DNA from: an uncultured Arcobacteraceae bacterium
GTDB taxonomy: Bacteria; Campylobacterota; Campylobacteria; Campylobacterales; Arcobacteraceae
Length of the DNA: 13,337 nucleotides
Direction of reading: 5' to 3'
Assembly: GCA_964022095.1 (NCBI GenBank)
Contig: CAXHZO010000029.1
Coordinates: 1 to 13,337, forward strand
How positions within the stretch are numbered: position 1 is the first letter of the stretch; the number at the start of each line of letters is the position of its first letter. The notes under the pieces were generated by a model. The model was not told where the DNA came from and did not search any database. It saw only the letters and a program-made list of their open reading frames with translations. A program made the translations under genes and the position numbers. This document shows positions 1 through 13,337 of the stretch, one piece after another.

Positions 1-2
1 TA

Positions 3-485
3 GATAGACAAAGAAAAACACCTTTATATTATGCAATAAAGAATAATTCAATTGATGTAGTTGATATGTTACTTCAAAGGGGTGTTGATCCTAATAATAC
101 TAGGTTTGTAAATAGGCATGATTATGCAGCAACTTTTACCGATCCAACAGAAGAAGCATTAGAAGGTGATCCTGCCTTATGGGATAGTGTATGTAATGAG
201 AAATATGAAATAACAGAGCTACTACTTAAATCGCCTAAGGTTGATGTTAATGAATACTATTATGCAAGAAATATATATCAACACTCGAAATCATGCTTAT
301 CAGATAAATATAAAAAAGATTATACAGATGATTTTGAGATAGATGATTATGGAACAAAAATGTATAAAAATATACCCCAAAGTATGGAAAGGACAATTAA
401 ACTTTTAGAGAGATATGGTGCTAAATATGAATTTCCTCAAGAAAGAGAAGGATATATTGAACATAGCAAAAAGGATAATAAGTGA
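3..485 (+). CDS. Ankyrin-repeat protein, 5' end outside the window (candidate immunity or accessory protein)
   Basis: The frame is open from nt 3 and reads DRQRKTPLYYAIKNNSIDVVD before the ATG at 66. This gives a canonical ankyrin repeat, TPLYYAIKNNSIDVVDMLLQRGVDPN. Further ankyrin-like segments are PALWDSVCNEKYEITELLLKSPKVDVN and TIKLLERYGAK. The TGA overlaps the next GTG (GTGA, 482-485). Confidence 0.85.
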   Translation, partial: DRQRKTPLYYAIKNNSIDVVDMLLQRGVDPNNTRFVNRHDYAATFTDPTEEALEGDPALWDSVCNEKYEITELLLKSPKVDVNEYYYARNIYQHSKSCLSDKYKKDYTDDFEIDDYGTKMYKNIPQSMERTIKLLERYGAKYEFPQEREGYIEHSKKDNK

Positions 486-1321
486 GCCAACTAAAGGGAA
501 GTAAATCAATAAACTATGTTGTTTTCAACATCCCCCTACTAATTCTAGTTCTCTTTATACAAATACCCCAACTATTTGCAAAAGAAAAAACAATAATATC
601 ACTTTATGGAAAAATAGATCCAAGGCTATATGTATCTGCAAGAACTTTATATAGATCAATGGATCCTAATGATATAAGAGAAAACTTTGAAGAGTGTACT
701 CAGTATAACTCTAGTACAAATCAAAGAAGACGAACCTTAGATTATGATATAAAATTCATAAATCCAAATAAAGATGGTGAATATAAATTAGATATTCCAA
801 TAAACTATTATGAAGAAAAAAATCCTTGTGGTTATGAGTATGTAGCAACGGAATTGCGAATAAAAAGGCATAAAGATGATGATTCTTTTGTTGAAATATA
901 TATTTTAAGTACTAACAAAAGATTAGGGAATAGAAGATCAACAATATCAGATTCAGTAAGTATAAGTATAGAAAGATTTCAAACAAACAAAAAATATCTA
1001 CAAGTAGCATCGGGGAGTAAGATTGATTGTTATACCGAACACTATATCAGTAAAAATAGAAGGACTAAACTTTTTGAAGAAAGTACCTCATTTATTTGTG
1101 AACCAGGAGATGAGAATAATGACAATGGAGTTGATGAGTTTAAAACTACTTCTATTAATCTAGATATTTTAATAAACAAAAATAAATCTACTATTTTAGA
1201 TCAAAGAATACCTAAAATAGGGACGATTAGTCGTATTAAACCTTACCACTTTATAGAGTATAAAAGACCTCCTACTTTTTTTGAAAAAGTTAAACTATAT
1301 ATTAAAAACCTAGTAAACTAA
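482..1321 (+). CDS. Exported (periplasmic) protein, paralog 1; putative immunity protein for the downstream Tle1-like lipase
   Basis: GTG start with AAGGA RBS at 471-475. Hydrophobic signal-like segment IPLLILVLFIQIPQLFA/KE. Four Cys (EECTQ, NPCGY, IDCYT, ICEP), all conserved in paralog 2. The immunity role is inferred from position only. Confidence 0.65.
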   Translation: MSQLKGSKSINYVVFNIPLLILVLFIQIPQLFAKEKTIISLYGKIDPRLYVSARTLYRSMDPNDIRENFEECTQYNSSTNQRRRTLDYDIKFINPNKDGEYKLDIPINYYEEKNPCGYEYVATELRIKRHKDDDSFVEIYILSTNKRLGNRRSTISDSVSISIERFQTNKKYLQVASGSKIDCYTEHYISKNRRTKLFEESTSFICEPGDENNDNGVDEFKTTSINLDILINKNKSTILDQRIPKIGTISRIKPYHFIEYKRPPTFFEKVKLYIKNLVN

Positions 1322-2163
1322 AGAAGATAAAATGAATAAAAATATAATCCCCCTACTAATTCTAGTTCTCTTTATACAAATACCCCAACTATTTGCAAAA
1401 GAAAAAACAATAATATCACTTTATGGAAAAATAGATCCAAGGCTATATGTATCTGCAAGAACTTTATATAGATCAATGGATCCTAATGATATAAGAGAAA
1501 ACTTTGAAGAGTGTACTCAGTATAACTCTAGTACAAATCAAAGAAGACGAACCTTAGATTATGATATAAAATTCATAAATCCAAATAAAGATGGTGAGTA
1601 TAAATTAGATATTCCAATAGACTATTATGAAGAAAAAAATCCTTGTGGTTATAAGTATGTAGCAACGGAATTGCGAATAAAAAGGCATAAAGATGATGAT
1701 TCTTATGTTGAAATGTATATTTTAAGTACTAACAAAATATTAACTAATAGAAGAGGGGAAATATCAGATTCGGGTTGGGCTGGTGTAAGAGGATTTAAAA
1801 CAAATAAGAAATATCTACAAGTAGCTTCTGGTAGTAAGATTGATTGTTACACAAAATATTATATTATTAAAGATAGAAGGACTAAACTTTTTAAAGAAAG
1901 TACCTTATTTACTTGTGAACCAGGAGATGAGAATAATGACAATGGAGTTGATGAGTTTAAAACTGCTTCTATTAATCTAGATATTTTAATAAACAAAAAT
2001 AAATCTACTATTTTAGATGAAAGAATACCTAAAATAGGGACGATTAGTCGTATTAAACCTTACCATTTCATAGAGTATAAAAGACCTCCTACTTTTTTTG
2101 AAAAAGTTAAACTATATATTAAAAACCTAATAAACTAAAGAAGATAAAATGAATAAAACAATA
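530..2163 (+). repeat. Direct tandem duplication, 817-bp unit (530-1346 / 1347-2163)
   Basis: Identity starts at atccccctact (530 vs 1347), and 530-780 is identical to 1347-1597. Both units end with taaactaaagaagataaaatgaataaaa, with ATGs at 1332 and 2149 exactly 817 nt apart. No indels seen. Confidence 0.95.
1332..2138 (+). CDS. Exported protein, paralog 2 (26 aa differences over 263 aligned aa versus paralog 1); putative immunity protein
   Basis: Manual ungapped alignment to 482..1321. Signal peptide MNKNIIPLLILVLFIQIPQLFA and the same four Cys. Ends 10 nt upstream of the DUF2235 gene. Confidence 0.65.
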   Translation: MNKNIIPLLILVLFIQIPQLFAKEKTIISLYGKIDPRLYVSARTLYRSMDPNDIRENFEECTQYNSSTNQRRRTLDYDIKFINPNKDGEYKLDIPIDYYEEKNPCGYKYVATELRIKRHKDDDSYVEMYILSTNKILTNRRGEISDSGWAGVRGFKTNKKYLQVASGSKIDCYTKYYIIKDRRTKLFKESTLFTCEPGDENNDNGVDEFKTASINLDILINKNKSTILDERIPKIGTISRIKPYHFIEYKRPPTFFEKVKLYIKNLIN

Positions 2164-3930
2164 ACAATGCTTATAGCCTTTGATGGAACAGGAAATCATA
2201 AAAAAAATGATGAAGCGATAGAAGATGATTCTCAAACAAATGTTGCAGAATTAGTTAACAGATACAATCTTCCAATAGAACATAAATTCTATAAAGAAGG
2301 TGTAGGAACAGTAGAATTAACAGAAGAACAAGTTCAACTAGTAAAAGATGGAAAAGCTAAAAAACAAGACTTCTATGACTCTAAAGATATGGCATTTGGT
2401 TTAAGTGTAAAAGATAAAGTAATATCTATGCTTAATAGAATAGAAGAGCCTATAAGAGATGCTTTAGAAGCAGCTGAAACAATCAACATAGACGTAACAG
2501 GATTTAGTAGAGGAGCAGCTAGTGCCAGAGATTTTGTAAATGAATTTAATAAAAGCTATTCTAAAGAGATACAAAGTGGCAAGATAAGTATAAACAATGT
2601 CATTTTATTTGATACTGTGGCAACTGTTTATTTAGCAAATAGTTACAATGAAGGTTTAAACCTAAACTTAAGTGAAAACTCTGCAAAAAATATTATTCAA
2701 TTCACTGCAAAAGATGAAAAAAGAGAAAATTTTCCCTTGGAGTCTTTAAAAGATATAAATGGCAACTTACCATCAAATACAAAAGAGTTTGTACTTTTTG
2801 GAGTACATTCAAATATTGGGGCGGGATATAAAAAAGTTGTTGTTGAGAATACTATTGTAAAAAGTGGATTTATTTCTTATCTTTCAGAAAATGAACTAGA
2901 ACTAAAAAAGACCCAATTTTTAAATGAAGGGGAAAAGTTAGGACTAAGTGTTGAGTTTAAGGAGTACTCAACTACACATAAAGGAATACAATACACCCAA
3001 CACAAATATAACTTTATTGATACAAAAATTATTTCAAATGAATTATCAAATGTCAGTTTACAACTAGCAATTGATGAACTAGTAAAAAGTGGTGCAAATA
3101 TAAATAATACATCAATCTTAAATAAACAAATTCCAAACGAACTTATACCTTATTATAATGCTATCAAAAATGGTCAAGATATTACCCCTTATGAATCAAT
3201 TGTTCAAAAATATATACATAACTCAGCCCATGATAAAACTGAAATGTTTTCAAATCCCAAAGATAAATTTATTGACTGGTTATCAAATAGAGATTTAGAT
3301 GAAAAAAGAGATATTTATTTAAATGAACCTTTAAAGGCAGTTAATCCAGAAAATCCACTTAGTTTTAATAATGAAGATAATCTAAAAGAAGATTTTATAG
3401 AATATGTAAAAGAAACCTACACTATAAATATAGCGGGAGTATATCATATTGATAATAACTCTATCAAAGCTATTGAGGATATAAAAGATTATTTAATAGA
3501 AAAACTCAACGTAAACAGTTTAAGTGATTTAAATAAAGACTCAATAGAAGAAAAAATCAATAATAACTCAACCATAAAACAAAAAGAGATATTCAATGAA
3601 AAGATTAATGATTTTAATGATTTTGTAAAAGCATTTATGGAAGGGACTGAACCCAAAGAAGATATAGAAAAGCTTCAAAAAGAAATAGAAACTATAAAAC
3701 AAAAAGAAACATTTGATGAAAAAATCAATGATTTCAACAATATGAACTTCAAAGATTTTACATCAAATCTATACATCGAACATCAATTTTCAAAATGTCG
3801 AGATGAAATTATTGAAAAAACTACATTTTCTGATATTAACATAAATAACAAAGAAGAATACAAACCATCGTTTTTTCAAGCTTTTGAGAACAATAATTCT
3901 AATTCTTCAAATATTCAAACATTGAATTAA
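2149..3930 (+). CDS. DUF2235 / Tle1-family alpha/beta-hydrolase (phospholipase effector) with C-terminal extension
   Basis: Family motifs: AFDGTGNH, TNVA, YKEGVGT, DVTGFSRGAASARDF (Ser120), LFDTVA (Asp155), DEKRENFPL, FGVHSNIGAGY (His220), ELSNVSL, YIHNSAH, RDIYLN. No signal peptide. Confidence 0.88.
   Translation: MNKTITMLIAFDGTGNHKKNDEAIEDDSQTNVAELVNRYNLPIEHKFYKEGVGTVELTEEQVQLVKDGKAKKQDFYDSKDMAFGLSVKDKVISMLNRIEEPIRDALEAAETINIDVTGFSRGAASARDFVNEFNKSYSKEIQSGKISINNVILFDTVATVYLANSYNEGLNLNLSENSAKNIIQFTAKDEKRENFPLESLKDINGNLPSNTKEFVLFGVHSNIGAGYKKVVVENTIVKSGFISYLSENELELKKTQFLNEGEKLGLSVEFKEYSTTHKGIQYTQHKYNFIDTKIISNELSNVSLQLAIDELVKSGANINNTSILNKQIPNELIPYYNAIKNGQDITPYESIVQKYIHNSAHDKTEMFSNPKDKFIDWLSNRDLDEKRDIYLNEPLKAVNPENPLSFNNEDNLKEDFIEYVKETYTINIAGVYHIDNNSIKAIEDIKDYLIEKLNVNSLSDLNKDSIEEKINNNSTIKQKEIFNEKINDFNDFVKAFMEGTEPKEDIEKLQKEIETIKQKETFDEKINDFNNMNFKDFTSNLYIEHQFSKCRDEIIEKTTFSDININNKEEYKPSFFQAFENNNSNSSNIQTLN
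3571..3738 (+). repeat. Internal 16-aa repeat with 40-aa (120-bp) period in the effector C-terminal extension
   Basis: TIKQKEIFNEKINDFN (3571-3618) versus TIKQKETFDEKINDFN (3691-3738), 14/16 aa identical. Confidence 0.9.
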
Positions 3931-3931
3931 A

Positions 3932-5266
3932 ATGGCAATTTCAAACAAACTATTATTTATAACTGTATTAGTAGAAGGATTTGTATCAATTGGAGTAGAA
4001 ATATTTGCTATAAGGCAAATGATACCTTATGTAGGAAGTAATATTTTAAATACAAGTATTATAATAGGTGTGTTTTTATTATTTCTTTCTTTAGGATACT
4101 ATAGAGGTGGACTGATAAAAAAAGACTTTAAACAATACTTATTAAATAATCTAATAAATAGTACTTTAATACTTAGTTTTGGATTATCATCTTTATTTTT
4201 ATCATGGTATTATGATTTTTTCGAGAGAATTGGGAATATTTATGGATTAGTCATCTTTACTTTTATAATAATAGCTCCTATTATATATTTATTAGGGCAA
4301 ACCATACCTATAGTTACTAATTTTATGAAGAATCTAACTTCTTCAAAAATAAATGGGACTTTATTGTTTTTATCAACTATTGGTTCATTCTTAGGTTCAA
4401 TTATAACCTCAACGGTACTACTAAACTTTTTAGGTGTAGACAACACTTTAATTGTATATATCACAATTTTATTTATATTAATAGTTATCTTATCTAAATA
4501 TATTAAACTTAATAAATTTTATTACTTTATCAGAATACTTTCAATTATATTAATAACAGTATTTTTCAATTCAAAAAGTCTTTATTTATATTCAAATACA
4601 TATTCAAGTGTATCAATAAAAAAAGACAATAATAACACAAGATATTTACAAATAAACAATAGTTTTTCAAGTTCATATAATGAAAAAACAAATAGTTCTA
4701 ACTTTAAGTATATTTTATTTTTAGAAAACCAAATAAAAGATATCATGAACATGAATAAAAAAGACATTTTAGTAATTGGTGCAGGAGGATTTACTTTATC
4801 ATTAAAAGATAAAGTAAATAACTATACTTATATAGATATTGATGATGATCTAAAAAAATATAGCGAAAAATATTTTCTAAAAAAACAGATTAATGGAAAA
4901 TTTATAAATAATGATATTAGATTTTACTTTTCAAATACAAAAAACAAATATGATATAATAATATTAGATGCCTTTAGTAATAAAAGAACTATTCCTTCTT
5001 TTTTATTAACACAAGATTTTTTTTCACAAATCAATCAACATTTAAATCAAACGGGTACTCTATTAATAAACTTTATTGGCTCTCCAAAATTTGAGAACAA
5101 CTATTCTAGACACTTTAACCAAACTATAACTAGTTTATTTAACTGCACTGTTGAACCACTAAATAAAACTCATAAAATATCAAATATAATTTATACTTGC
5201 TACGCTAAAAATGATTCTATTATATACACAGACAATAAAATTAATTTATTTGAATTAATTCAATGA
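3932..5266 (+). CDS. Membrane-domain-fused spermidine-synthase-like SAM-dependent transferase
   Basis: The N-terminal ~215 aa form multiple hydrophobic helices (EGFVSIGVEIFAIRQMIPYVG..., STIGSFLGS). The C-terminal class I SAM fold has ILVIGAGGFTL, YIDID, YDIIILDAF and LLTQDFF. Starts 1 nt after the effector stop codon. Confidence 0.8.
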   Translation: MAISNKLLFITVLVEGFVSIGVEIFAIRQMIPYVGSNILNTSIIIGVFLLFLSLGYYRGGLIKKDFKQYLLNNLINSTLILSFGLSSLFLSWYYDFFERIGNIYGLVIFTFIIIAPIIYLLGQTIPIVTNFMKNLTSSKINGTLLFLSTIGSFLGSIITSTVLLNFLGVDNTLIVYITILFILIVILSKYIKLNKFYYFIRILSIILITVFFNSKSLYLYSNTYSSVSIKKDNNNTRYLQINNSFSSSYNEKTNSSNFKYILFLENQIKDIMNMNKKDILVIGAGGFTLSLKDKVNNYTYIDIDDDLKKYSEKYFLKKQINGKFINNDIRFYFSNTKNKYDIIILDAFSNKRTIPSFLLTQDFFSQINQHLNQTGTLLINFIGSPKFENNYSRHFNQTITSLFNCTVEPLNKTHKISNIIYTCYAKNDSIIYTDNKINLFELIQ

Positions 5267-5300
5267 TTGTTATTTACTTGTAATCAAACTCAATTAAAAT
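5267..5300 (+). promoter_or_regulatory. Pho-box-like direct repeat (TTGTTAT-ttac-TTGTAAT, 5267-5284) and -10 box TAAAAT (5295-5300)
   Basis: Two 7-mers resembling the PhoB half-site CTGTCAT, 11 bp apart, ending exactly 10 bp before a TAAAAT hexamer. The ATG follows the -10 after a 6-nt spacer with no Shine-Dalgarno. Confidence 0.55.
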
Positions 5301-5306
5301 GCTTCC

Positions 5307-6047
5307 ATGAAATACAGAAGCATTTTTATATCAGATGTACACTTAGGAACACGCTTTTCAAAAGCAAAAAAATTAGTGAAATTTTTAAATCATCATGAAT
5401 GTGAAAACCTCATCTTAGTGGGAGATATTATAGATGGGTGGGCCATTAAAAGAAAACTTATTTGGCCTCAAGCACATTCTGATGTAATACAAAAAGTTTT
5501 AAAAAAAGCAAGAAAAGGTACTGAAGTTACTTTTATTACAGGTAACCATGATGAGTTTTTAAGACCATTTGTACCCTTAGTTTTAGGAAACTCTCTTAAT
5601 ATTTCAAATGAATTAGAATACAGTTCATTAAATGGAAAAAAATATTATGTGACCCATGGTGATTTTTTTGACTCAATTACTATGACTAAAAAATGGTTAG
5701 CAATTCTTGGTGATTATGGATATGATTTACTATTACATCTAAATGCAGGATTAAACTTCATTAGAAGAAAGCTAGGAATTCAAAAATACTGGTCACTATC
5801 AAAATATGTAAAAGATAATGTAAAATCTTCAGTTTCATTTATTAGTGATTTTGAAAGTGTTTTATCTAATCATGCAAAAAATAAAGGATATGATGGTATC
5901 ATTTGTGGTCATATTCACAAAGCTGAAATTAGAGATATTGATGGAATTGAATACCTCAATTGTGGTGACTGGGTAGAAAATTGTACAGCAGTTGTTGAAA
6001 CGTATGACGGAGAATTCAAAATTATAAATTGGTTAGATAAAGAATGA
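5307..6047 (+). CDS. Calcineurin-like metallophosphoesterase of the LpxH/YbbF family, most similar in motif pattern to PlcP-type phospholipase C (often annotated UDP-2,3-diacylglucosamine hydrolase)
   Basis: Motifs FISDVHLGT, LVGDIIDGW, WPQAHSDVIQKVLKKARKG, GNHDEFLR, HGDFFD, YWSLSKYVK, ICGHIH, YLNCGDWVENCTAVVE. Confidence 0.85.
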   Translation: MKYRSIFISDVHLGTRFSKAKKLVKFLNHHECENLILVGDIIDGWAIKRKLIWPQAHSDVIQKVLKKARKGTEVTFITGNHDEFLRPFVPLVLGNSLNISNELEYSSLNGKKYYVTHGDFFDSITMTKKWLAILGDYGYDLLLHLNAGLNFIRRKLGIQKYWSLSKYVKDNVKSSVSFISDFESVLSNHAKNKGYDGIICGHIHKAEIRDIDGIEYLNCGDWVENCTAVVETYDGEFKIINWLDKE

Positions 6048-6799
6048 ACTTAGCTTTAGTTTTAGGTGGAGGTGCAGCTCGTGGTGCTTTTCACTTAGGT
6101 TTTTTACATTTTTGTGAAGAAAATAACATCCAAATAAATGCCTATAGTGGCTCTTCAATTGGAGCAATAATAAGTGCATCTCATGCAAGTGGAGTTAAAG
6201 CAAAAGAACTGCTAAAAATATTTGCAAGTAATGATGTAAAAAAAGCTTTGAAATTTAACTACTTTAAAAATGGATTACTAAGAATAGAACAAACACACAA
6301 AATCATTGATAAAATACTTCCCATAAAAAAACTTGAAGATATCCCAAAACCAGTTTGGGTAAATGCTTATGATATAAAAAAAAGAGAACTTCACTATTTT
6401 AATAGTGGAGACACTGTAACTTTATGTATGGCATCAAGTGCTTTAACACCAATTTTTAGACCAATTTCTTATGAAAATATGTATTTAATTGATGGTGGAT
6501 TATTTGATAATTTACCAATAAAACCTTTAGAGAATAAAGGCTACAATATTTTGACAATTGACCTTTTTGCAAAGAAAAAAGGAAACAACTTTTTTTATAA
6601 ATTAAATCCCATAAAACCTATCAAAAAAGCAATTTTCACTCAACTTCATGAAAACCATAAATACTCAGTAAAAACAACAAATCAATACCTTGGTAGTGAA
6701 TTTATAACTGATTTTTCACTATTTACTTTTAGCCAATTAAATGATTGTTTTAATCTAGGTTTTAAAGAGGCTCAAAAACATTTTTTAGATATACTATAA
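6044..6799 (+). CDS. Patatin-like phospholipase (RssA/NTE family)
   Basis: Oxyanion motif LVLGGGAARG, nucleophile motif GSSIG, ASSA, and DGG. ATGA overlap with the upstream gene. Confidence 0.9.
   Translation: MNLALVLGGGAARGAFHLGFLHFCEENNIQINAYSGSSIGAIISASHASGVKAKELLKIFASNDVKKALKFNYFKNGLLRIEQTHKIIDKILPIKKLEDIPKPVWVNAYDIKKRELHYFNSGDTVTLCMASSALTPIFRPISYENMYLIDGGLFDNLPIKPLENKGYNILTIDLFAKKKGNNFFYKLNPIKPIKKAIFTQLHENHKYSVKTTNQYLGSEFITDFSLFTFSQLNDCFNLGFKEAQKHFLDIL
6781..6795 (+). promoter_or_regulatory. Putative sigma70 promoter of dnaE inside the patatin 3' end (-10 TATACT, 6790-6795)
   Basis: A T-tract followed by agaTATACT, ~28 nt upstream of the dnaE ATG. This is the usual Campylobacterota promoter layout. 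Confidence 0.45.
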
Positions 6800-12617: not shown

Positions 12618-13172
12618 ATGCAATCATACTTAATAAAATCAATTCTATTTATATCACTAATTACAACAATCACTTACGCAAGAAGTGATAATGAAACAGA
12701 TGCCGTACTTAATTTAAAAGCCTATGCAGTTTTTAAAATGGGTCAATATGATGAAGCAAAAAAAATGTGGGAAGAACTGGCTAAAAAAGGAAATACAACT
12801 GCATTGATTAATCTAGCAAATTTATTTGAACAAGGTAATGGAGTTAAAAAAGATAGAATTGAAGCATTAAAATATATTAAAAAAGCAGCAAAACTAAACG
12901 ATGAGCGTGCACAATATGAATTAGGTATTGAATACGAAAAAGGTATATACTTAAAAAGAGATCTAAATAAAGCAGAATACTGGCTAAAAAAAGCAGCAAA
13001 AAATGATAGTAGCCAAGCACAATTAGCATATGGAATAATGTTAGCTACTTCAAAAGGAAAAGGAATAGAAAATATTTCTTCAACTGAAAAAAAAGAAGCT
13101 ATAAAATGGTTAACCTTTGCATTAAAAAACGGGGAGGGAGAAGCGAAGGATTACATAGAATTACTAAAATAA
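12618..13172 (+). CDS. Exported Sel1-like (TPR) repeat protein
   Basis: Signal peptide ending ...TITYA/RS. Sel1 repeats ALINLANLFEQGNGVKKD, AQYELGIEYEKGIYLKRD and AQLAYGIM. RBS AAGGA at 12606-12610 and extended -10 TGtTATATT at 12586-12594. Confidence 0.9.
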   Translation: MQSYLIKSILFISLITTITYARSDNETDAVLNLKAYAVFKMGQYDEAKKMWEELAKKGNTTALINLANLFEQGNGVKKDRIEALKYIKKAAKLNDERAQYELGIEYEKGIYLKRDLNKAEYWLKKAAKNDSSQAQLAYGIMLATSKGKGIENISSTEKKEAIKWLTFALKNGEGEAKDYIELLK

Positions 13173-13337
13173 GATTAAATTAGTTTAATATGCTCATAAA
13201 ATGATTTTAAACATGCTGTAAGAGATTTGTAAACATTAAATGAGTAAAAGTATATTTTGACAATTATAAAAGATTATGAGAGATAAATAGAGGAATAAAA
13301 AAAAGGTAAAAAAAAAGCTTTTAGCTAAAAGAACAAA

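Follow-up and report, generated by a model that had tools for sequence, protein, structure and literature searches.

The cassette at positions 482-3930 of the DNA studied here raises the question of how a lipase made without a signal peptide, and encoded just behind two exported proteins that look like its guards, would come to act on another cell. The window, i.e. the whole stretch of DNA analyzed, is an entire contig of 13,337 bp (C29) from the genome of an uncultured Arcobacteraceae bacterium (G000; 2.57 Mb, 31 contigs, 27.9% GC, completeness rated 99.99%). According to the list of open reading frames (ORFs), the cassette comprises three genes, 482-1321 (279 amino acids, aa), 1332-2138 (268 aa) and 2149-3930 (593 aa), which encode two paralogs, hereafter A and B, and a lipase of the Tle1/DUF2235 family. 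We consider it probable that these genes form a toxin-immunity cassette of a chromosomal island that carries a divergent type IV secretion system (T4SS) and at least six polymorphic toxins, all addressed by a shared C-terminal tail.

The 593-aa protein is a member of the Tle1/DUF2235 family by both sequence and fold. It matches the Pfam profile PF09994 (T6SS_Tle1-like_cat) with 66.3 bits (cut-off 27; E 3.8e-18) and contains the motifs FDGTGN (residue 11), GFSRG (118, with Ser120), DTVA (155, with Asp155) and HSNIG (220, with His220). In a phmmer alignment with Tle1 of enteroaggregative Escherichia coli (EAEC; 6sjl_D, E 5.4e-9), S120, D155 and H220 pair with residues S197, D245 and H310 of the solved chain, which we take to be its catalytic triad, a numbering that our literature search did not confirm. 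The AlphaFold2 (AF2) model of the protein, built from an alignment of 18 rows, has a pLDDT of 76.2, and Foldseek ranks 1-5 are all Tle1 or TleB structures (6sjl_E, the best, with E 3.2e-15, then 6ski, 4o5p and the TleB structure 9j3f); the TMq reaches only 0.39-0.40, since a linker and the tail come on top of the Tle1 fold. The protein has neither a signal peptide nor a PAAR, MIX, VgrG or Rhs carrier domain; the Pfam scan returned no second credible domain and the NCBIfam scan no match. Two homologues that consist of the catalytic domain only (384 and 388 aa) stop at the presumed end of the Tle1 part, and therefore about 200 additional residues genuinely follow this part in the window protein. 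Thus, a preliminary description of the locus, which had the DUF2235 domain begin right at the start without signal peptide or carrier, the triad S120/D155/H220 intact and the Tle1 part ending near residue 394 (RDIYLNEP, 387-394) with some 200 residues to follow, agrees with the ORF, the motifs, the Pfam scan, the alignment to 6sjl_D and the two short homologues. Among the additional residues, the linker has counterparts in just two homologues, P0002 and P0003, both of full length, and is missing from P0004 (alignment A5).

The remainder of the extension is a domain of about 120 residues, made in the AF2 model of a four-helix core (pLDDT of ten-residue blocks 81-90 over residues 481-560, 65 for 471-480) and of 33 disordered residues. 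When the toxin was used to search the 184 species genomes of our family-wide set, only residues 474-593 matched an ORF of another genome, G103 (56% identity), and residues 403-591 matched a 650-aa protein encoded on contig C25 of the genome studied here. A hidden Markov model (HMM) built from seven tails retrieves five ORFs in this genome, namely the window lipase, three C25-encoded proteins (one of 650 aa with RTX repeats, one of 467 aa with a Gly-zipper and one of 368 aa without assigned fold) and one protein on C4, a class-3/Mbeg1-like lipase that lay outside the training set and is matched with E 8.6e-42. A sixth toxin is severed at the end of C25 and is found in full length, with its tail, in the database (P0020); PDB sequence searches with the 368-aa protein and with P0020 gave no match. 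All six tail-bearing toxins are located in the island, with immunity-like genes upstream.

The domain is very rare and nearly always terminal. A profile search of 1.84 billion representatives (E <= 1e-3) yielded 16 proteins, 15 of which carry it at their extreme C-terminus behind unrelated N-terminal parts, the sixteenth match being weak and internal. Within the family it occurs in 3 of the 184 genomes: the one studied here, G103, where it forms a tail-only ORF, and G004, where the match is weak and contains stops. The last residues follow the pattern x-I/V/T-Q-x-M/L/I-x in 17 of 17 aligned members (summarised as xIQxMx), with the Gln invariant in all 17, and the end is N/S-rich, with 0-2 K/R within the last 25 residues. 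Six toxin domains that share one terminal module with conserved last residues would, by analogy, be the signature of a delivery tag, with the four-helix core as a candidate recognition domain for the secretion machine; judging from sequence, the tail most likely directs translocation by a T4SS of a new lineage. The tail-only ORF of G103 (99 aa, contig C6, L004 908-1797) lies beside a gene for a 159-aa exported protein that resembles, by eye, C25:6590-6991, and the locus seems to be a relic of a lost island.

A pair of paralogous Gly-zipper proteins bears on how the tail spreads. The two are near-identical up to ...ILI(D/E)YNGG, after which one continues with RTX repeats and the other with the tail. 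From its sequence, the latter looks like a toxin of a type I secretion system (T1SS) that has been re-tagged with the tail.

The limits of the island were mapped by comparison with G156, a complete genome of the same genus. There, recJ and two lipoprotein genes (the equivalent of C4:6359-9234) are found about 700 bp from the lpxH-like, patatin, dnaE and surE genes (the equivalent of the window from 5298 onward); therefore, everything that lies between them in our genome is an insertion, of which the first 5.3 kb of the window are the right edge. The insertion, of about 40 kb, is made of window positions 1 to ~5290, C25 (28.4 kb, every gene on one strand) and C4:1-6300, the latter two holding the other tail-bearing toxins. 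The contigs share 55-mers at their ends: the left end of C29 with the right end of C25, within an ankyrin gene that occurs as a repeat (window positions 1-55 equal the C25 end in reverse complement), and the left end of C25 with C4:1375, inside a tail-bearing gene. The GC content of the island parts is 25.4-26.3%, versus 28.3-29.6% for the flanks. G156 contains no tail, no full-length ortholog of the coupling protein described below and no DUF2235 match.

Two components of a T4SS are encoded in the island next to these toxins. The protein encoded at C4:3109-5004, beside the class-3/Mbeg1-like lipase, is a coupling protein: it scores 40 bits against TraG-D_C (cut-off 22) and 24.4 bits against TrwB_AAD_bind (cut-off 20.5), and among solved structures it comes closest to IcmO/DotL (6sz9_A, E 1.4e-19). 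A gene for a 266-aa membrane protein lies upstream of it. It has 172 homologues, with about 50% identity in Campylobacter and Helicobacter, some of which are named in their sources as T4SS conjugative DNA transfer protein or IcmO. The second component is a 795-aa ATPase (C25:13106-15502) with no Pfam or NCBIfam match, for which PDB sequence and profile searches reached only HerA, EccC and FtsK. Its AF2 model (pLDDT 81.5), however, is matched by Foldseek to TrwK/VirB4 of R388 in 12 of the 13 best-listed rows and to VirB4 of Thermoanaerobacter in the other, with HerA only afterwards; the best match, 8rtd_O (E 4.1e-20), is aligned over the full length, TMq values are 0.45-0.54, and the ESM Atlas returns look-alikes of VirB4, TraC and IncI TraU. 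The protein may thus be assigned to the VirB4 family by its predicted fold. Its 12 homologues are all unnamed and without Pfam domain.

The gene cluster also encodes an SLT lytic transglycosylase domain (E 4.2e-13), a protein matching T4SS_pilin below the cut-off (20.2 versus 26.6 bits), an AAA+ ATPase and many small exported proteins; no family was matched by the latter or by a 769-aa polytopic protein. The AAA+ ATPase is Cdc48/FtsH-like (C25:22568-23722; L014:9566-10699) and conserved in the clusters of G067 and of two metagenome contigs, and apparently also in that of the Campylobacter plasmid pCORI-1; unusual for a T4SS, it may be a substrate unfoldase. In the two metagenome contigs, whose ATPases are 74-82% identical to ours, the gene order is collinear and the coupling protein gene lies directly beside C25-type genes, and therefore the toxin cassettes were inserted between them in the genome studied here. 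The ATPase is also found on 14 plasmids (12 of Campylobacter, 1 of Helicobacter and 1 of Caminibacter, L042), all typed as non-mobilizable; pCORI-1 is syntenic with the cluster and annotated as hypothetical almost throughout. Note that the Pfam profiles PF02534 (VirD4) and PF03135 (VirB4) have no match in the genome; the conclusion that it has no T4SS, which these blanks invite, is overturned by the divergent coupling protein and the VirB4-fold ATPase, and a scan of the TXSScan type might wrongly have refuted the T4SS idea.

The family name of the lipase would usually place it among the cargo effectors of a type VI secretion system (T6SS), and its best structural matches are indeed T6SS Tle1 proteins. 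We regard such a role as highly improbable here. Profile searches for the T6SS markers TssC, Hcp and VgrG/Phage_GPD gave no match in this nearly complete genome, the protein carries no PAAR, MIX, VgrG or Rhs domain, and no vgrG, PAAR or adaptor gene lies upstream of the cassette; moreover, DUF2235 is already known on T4SS effectors of Xanthomonadales (PMC6536674). The suggestion of the preliminary description that delivery may be of the T4SS rather than the T6SS type is therefore supported on genomic grounds: of the two kinds of secretion genes to be looked for in the genome, a divergent T4SS is present and a T6SS is not, and the sequence to the left of the window proves to be the T4SS-bearing island that shares the tail.

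The two genes upstream of the lipase encode the immunity candidates. Paralogs A and B are 90% identical (237/263); both begin with a signal-like hydrophobic stretch (...IPLLILVLFIQIPQLFA/KEK) and contain four Cys residues at conserved positions, as expected from the earlier claim that two exported, Cys-containing paralogs directly precede the toxin. Neither matches any Pfam or NCBIfam family, including DUF3304 (Tli1), so that they are not assigned to Tli1, and an ESM Atlas search with paralog B returned unnamed clusters only. In G152, a 288-aa lipoprotein homologue is encoded directly upstream of a DUF2235 gene that is truncated after GFSRG, with a lipobox instead of the type I-like signal of the window paralogs, and G164 has kept an orphan homologue. 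An assembly artefact does not account for the arrangement of the cassette: in runs X1, X2 and X4, of which X1 and X2 may represent the source sample, window positions 26-559 are covered without differences by a single public contig of 534 nt, and read depth over 530-887 (~180, versus ~102 elsewhere) is nearly doubled, as would be expected if two paralogs are collapsed there. Exported guards together with a toxin lacking a signal peptide would fit a toxin that enters the periplasm from outside.

These elements can be assembled into a conditional scheme. The Tle1-fold phospholipase would be synthesised in the cytoplasm, without signal peptide, and its C-terminal domain of ~120 residues would act as an address label read by the DotL-like coupling protein (most likely) or by an adaptor. 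The VirB4-type machine would then move the toxin into adjacent Gram-negative cells, where the delivered lipase would attack membrane phospholipid from the periplasmic side, and the two exported paralogs would bind the lipase in the periplasm so that sister cells are protected. Cassettes would be swapped by recombination at conserved modules, namely the ankyrin gene with the 5' stub of an effector gene, and the tail domain.

A broader claim can be attached to this scheme, which we find evenly balanced between true and false: that a third, independently evolved bacteria-killing T4SS has arisen from an unclassified, conjugation-type plasmid machine of Campylobacterota, combining a profile-invisible VirB4-fold ATPase, a DotL-like coupling protein and a conserved AAA+ ATPase with a new translocation domain of ~120 residues, which would tag lipases, Gly-zipper toxins and unassigned folds and would have been grafted onto a former T1SS toxin.

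The main and serious rival of T4SS delivery, although we judge it unlikely, is that the tail common to these toxins serves as a type I secretion signal for export through ABC/HlyD/TolC, the T4SS being nearby through co-carriage on a mobile island. T1SS signals are C-terminal, uncleaved, short and poorly conserved. The first two of these properties would speak for this reading, as do several features of the island: the 650-aa tail protein carries RTX repeats just before the tail (Pfam HemolysinCabind, E 6.9e-14), a Gly-zipper RTX paralog is encoded in it, and so is an HlyD remnant. A conserved, folded domain of ~90 residues, however, is unlike such signals, the window lipase itself has no RTX repeats, and the assembled parts of the island contain no intact ABC/HlyD pair, only the remnant. 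Distribution points in the same direction, since the search of 21 relatives found an HlyD ortholog in 15, among them the tail-free G156 (90% identity), whereas the tail is confined to 3 of 184 genomes. In the Gly-zipper pair, moreover, the RTX end and the tail are alternatives, as would fit two export routes.

That the island is an (ex-)conjugative element in which the toxin-immunity cassettes are mere cargo, serving addiction, exclusion or as toxins released by lysis, with a tail used for oligomerisation, surface attachment or chaperone binding, appears quite unlikely to us. Relatives of the machine do reside on Campylobacter and Helicobacter plasmids, the cluster adjoins a relaxase-like helicase gene in G067, and the machine is widespread without the tail. 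Yet scans of 18, 17 and 6 island ORFs and of the 7 ORFs of the window returned no relaxase domain, and the two PF03432 relaxase genes of the genome lie on other contigs (C10:61011-61406, GC 26.1%; C12:6905-7303, GC 26.4%) and probably belong to other mobile elements. Exported immunity proteins imply that the toxin arrives in a periplasm, even though it has no signal peptide, and six toxin domains share a conserved terminal module, as do the XVIPCD effectors described in PMC8740702.

Delivery by a tail-reading T4SS, which we still favour over these alternatives, has to accommodate several contrary observations. The coupling protein, the VirB4-like ATPase and the SLT domain are the only machine parts confidently identified, and the assembly of the island is not contiguous, with the 5' part of the ankyrin gene and some toxin repeats missing. 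The tail HMM found nothing in 16 ATPase-bearing metagenome loci, in G067 or in pCORI-1; therefore, the machine is widespread without the tail, and this, together with the relaxase-like gene in G067, argues that its ancestral role was conjugation. In the two closest metagenome contigs, the sequence breaks off at or within the 790-aa gene, before any toxin region would begin. G103 has the tail-only ORF yet no match to the coupling protein. Evidence that tail and machine are co-located elsewhere is indirect, coming from matching longest contigs (359460, 22322 and 23246 bp) for tail-bearing and machine proteins in other assemblies. Finally, two relatives in the tail family carry RTX repeats, and two full HlyD-family genes are present elsewhere in the genome in addition to the remnant in the island.

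The closest parallel to the proposed scheme is offered by the X-T4SS of Xanthomonadales, whose X-Tfe/X-Tfi are characterized by a C-terminal XVIPCD of ~120 residues comprising a folded part and a polar tail, with upstream immunity genes, tail-only ORFs and DUF2235, Lipase_3 and DUF2974 among the toxin domains (PMC8740702, PMC6536674). The likeness is extensive: a variable N-terminal toxin (DUF2235, Lipase_3, DUF2974/Mbeg1-like) precedes a shared C-terminal domain of ~120 residues, an immunity gene, often for an exported protein, lies upstream, several pairs occur per genome, some within the T4SS locus, and small tail-only ORFs exist. It is nevertheless a likeness of layout and not homology. 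The predicted core has four helices here, versus an alpha-alpha-beta-beta-beta arrangement in XVIPCD (PMC8740702), there is no sequence match, and the tail is N/S-rich and ends in xIQxMx, versus a Gln-rich tail with a terminal Arg. Our Pfam scans of the whole protein and of six tails (E up to 10) revealed no XVIPCD family, a result that presumes an XVIPCD model in the Pfam copy used. The machine differs as well, being not of the VirB/VirD4 type (PF02534 and PF03135 blank), having a DotL-like coupling protein and belonging to the phylum Campylobacterota. The XVIPCD analogy drawn in the preliminary description thus stands for the layout (immunity upstream, toxin N-terminal, tail C-terminal) and falls for homology, core fold and VirB/VirD4-type machine.

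Other known systems resemble the locus in part. In Pseudomonas putida IsoF, the type IVB secretion system kib is Dot/Icm-related, lies on a rare genomic island, kills Gram-negative bacteria and includes an effector-immunity pair (PMC9519443). A T4SS on a rare island and a Dot/Icm relation recur in our genome, as would the killing of bacteria. In the kib system, however, dot/icm genes can be recognised, a single pair is known, its immunity protein is cytosolic and no effector domain is reported to be shared (PMC9519443), whereas here the likeness to Dot/Icm is limited to the coupling protein, both immunity candidates are exported and one tail is borne by six toxins. The Tle1/Tli1 pairs of T6SSs (EAEC, P. 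aeruginosa) share with the cassette the catalytic fold, the Ser-Asp-His motifs, a periplasm-facing immunity protein (a candidate here) and a tandem paralog pair, Tli1a and Tli1b being 75% identical (PMC13133936); unlike them, the cassette has no T6SS, VgrG or adaptor, its immunity candidates lack DUF3304, and a C-terminal tail replaces the membrane-anchoring domains of Tle1. A third comparison concerns T1SS toxins. Cdz-type glycine-zipper bacteriocins and RTX lipases are exported by T1SSs. The island likewise has Gly-zipper and RTX toxins, small membrane immunity-like genes and an HlyD remnant, but the window lipase has neither RTX repeats nor a Gly-zipper, and of the two Gly-zipper paralogs one has the tail where the other has its RTX end. 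The remnant, ~260 bp of the 3' part of an HlyD-family gene (C25:4782-5044), lies just upstream of the genes for a 167-aa membrane protein and the Gly-zipper RTX toxin and is likely what remains of a T1SS bacteriocin locus that the island has taken up.

The coordinates of the features of the window are collected in Table 1, and its left end bears traces of cassette turnover. The repeat module has a copy at the right end of C25, ahead of the tail-bearing RTX toxin gene, with 87% DNA identity that stops at ~516, i.e. 12 codons into the gene starting at 482, so that the N-terminal 12 residues of paralog A are those of a homologue of the RTX effector; in other words, its first 12 codons (MSQLKGSKSINY) have been taken from the 5' end of an effector gene. 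Similarly, an identical spacer followed by the same first ten gene bases (ATGAATAAAA) is found at both 1332 and 2149, the start of paralog B repeating that of the toxin. Three cassettes have diverged tandem pairs of immunity-like genes (77%, 77% and 90% identity). The ankyrin fragment is 76% identical to C25:27893-28369, and the ankyrin protein is a candidate for an adaptor, a chaperone or an immunity protein. In runs X1, X2 and X6, public contigs match the window up to ~321 and then diverge with one common loose end, which suggests a third variant of the 3' part of the ankyrin gene.

Table 1. Features of the window, with positions counted from its first base
Feature	Position	Strand	Basis or remark
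Repeat module	1..516	+	3' part of ankyrin-repeat gene, stop, ribosome-binding site, first 12 codons of the next gene
Ankyrin-repeat protein, C-terminal 160 aa, cut by contig end	3..485	+	Pfam Ank E 3.1e-9
Immunity candidate A, 279 aa, exported, 4 Cys	482..1321	+	ORF, alignment, sequence motifs
Immunity candidate B, 268 aa, exported, 4 Cys	1332..2138	+	Tandem duplicate of A
Toxin, catalytic part, aa 1-395	2149..3333	+	DUF2235/Tle1-fold serine lipase; Ser120, Asp155, His220
Toxin, linker, aa 396-465	3334..3543	+	Low-confidence helical; pLDDT 39-61
Toxin, folded core of the shared C-terminal domain, aa 466-560	3544..3828	+	Four helices; HMM/profile matches
Toxin, disordered polar tail, aa 561-593	3829..3927	+	N/S/Q-rich, ends NSSNIQTLN; pLDDT ~30
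Fused MFS/spermidine-synthase-like membrane protein	3932..5266	+	NCBIfam NF037959 E 6.6e-28
Island right border	5267..5306	.	Beyond: lpxH-like, patatin, dnaE, surE in G156 order

The membrane protein gene that follows the toxin is still within the insertion; its GC content is 21-24%, it has no match in G156, and a 67%-identical homologue is encoded in G103. Beyond the border, a patatin-like phospholipase gene that is conserved in G156 is found at 6044-6799, between the lpxH-like gene and dnaE. Near the right end of the window, positions 12618-13172 encode an exported protein with Sel1-like repeats (by eye), and the last 55 bases (13283-13337) recur, reverse-complemented, as the first 55 of C24, so both contigs enter one unassembled repeat.

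Our literature searches on Arcobacter and Campylobacter found no description of a system of this kind. To our knowledge, bacteria-killing T4SSs have been reported from Xanthomonadales-like VirB/D4 systems and from one Pseudomonas type IVB system. If our interpretation is true, a second, unrelated effector-tag domain exists in another T4SS lineage and another phylum, which would mean that this solution arose more than once, and the tail profile would be a handle for finding effectors in marine Arcobacter-like bacteria. The locus also exposes a blind spot of annotation: standard VirB4 and VirD4 profiles miss the machine and 14 of 14 carrier plasmids are typed as non-mobilizable, so that standard T4SS and mobility typing seems blind to it, while a "T6SS Tle1" label does not imply the presence of a T6SS. 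Altogether, the evidence from genome sequences points to a secretion system of a new kind, by which marine Arcobacter-like bacteria would kill other bacteria.

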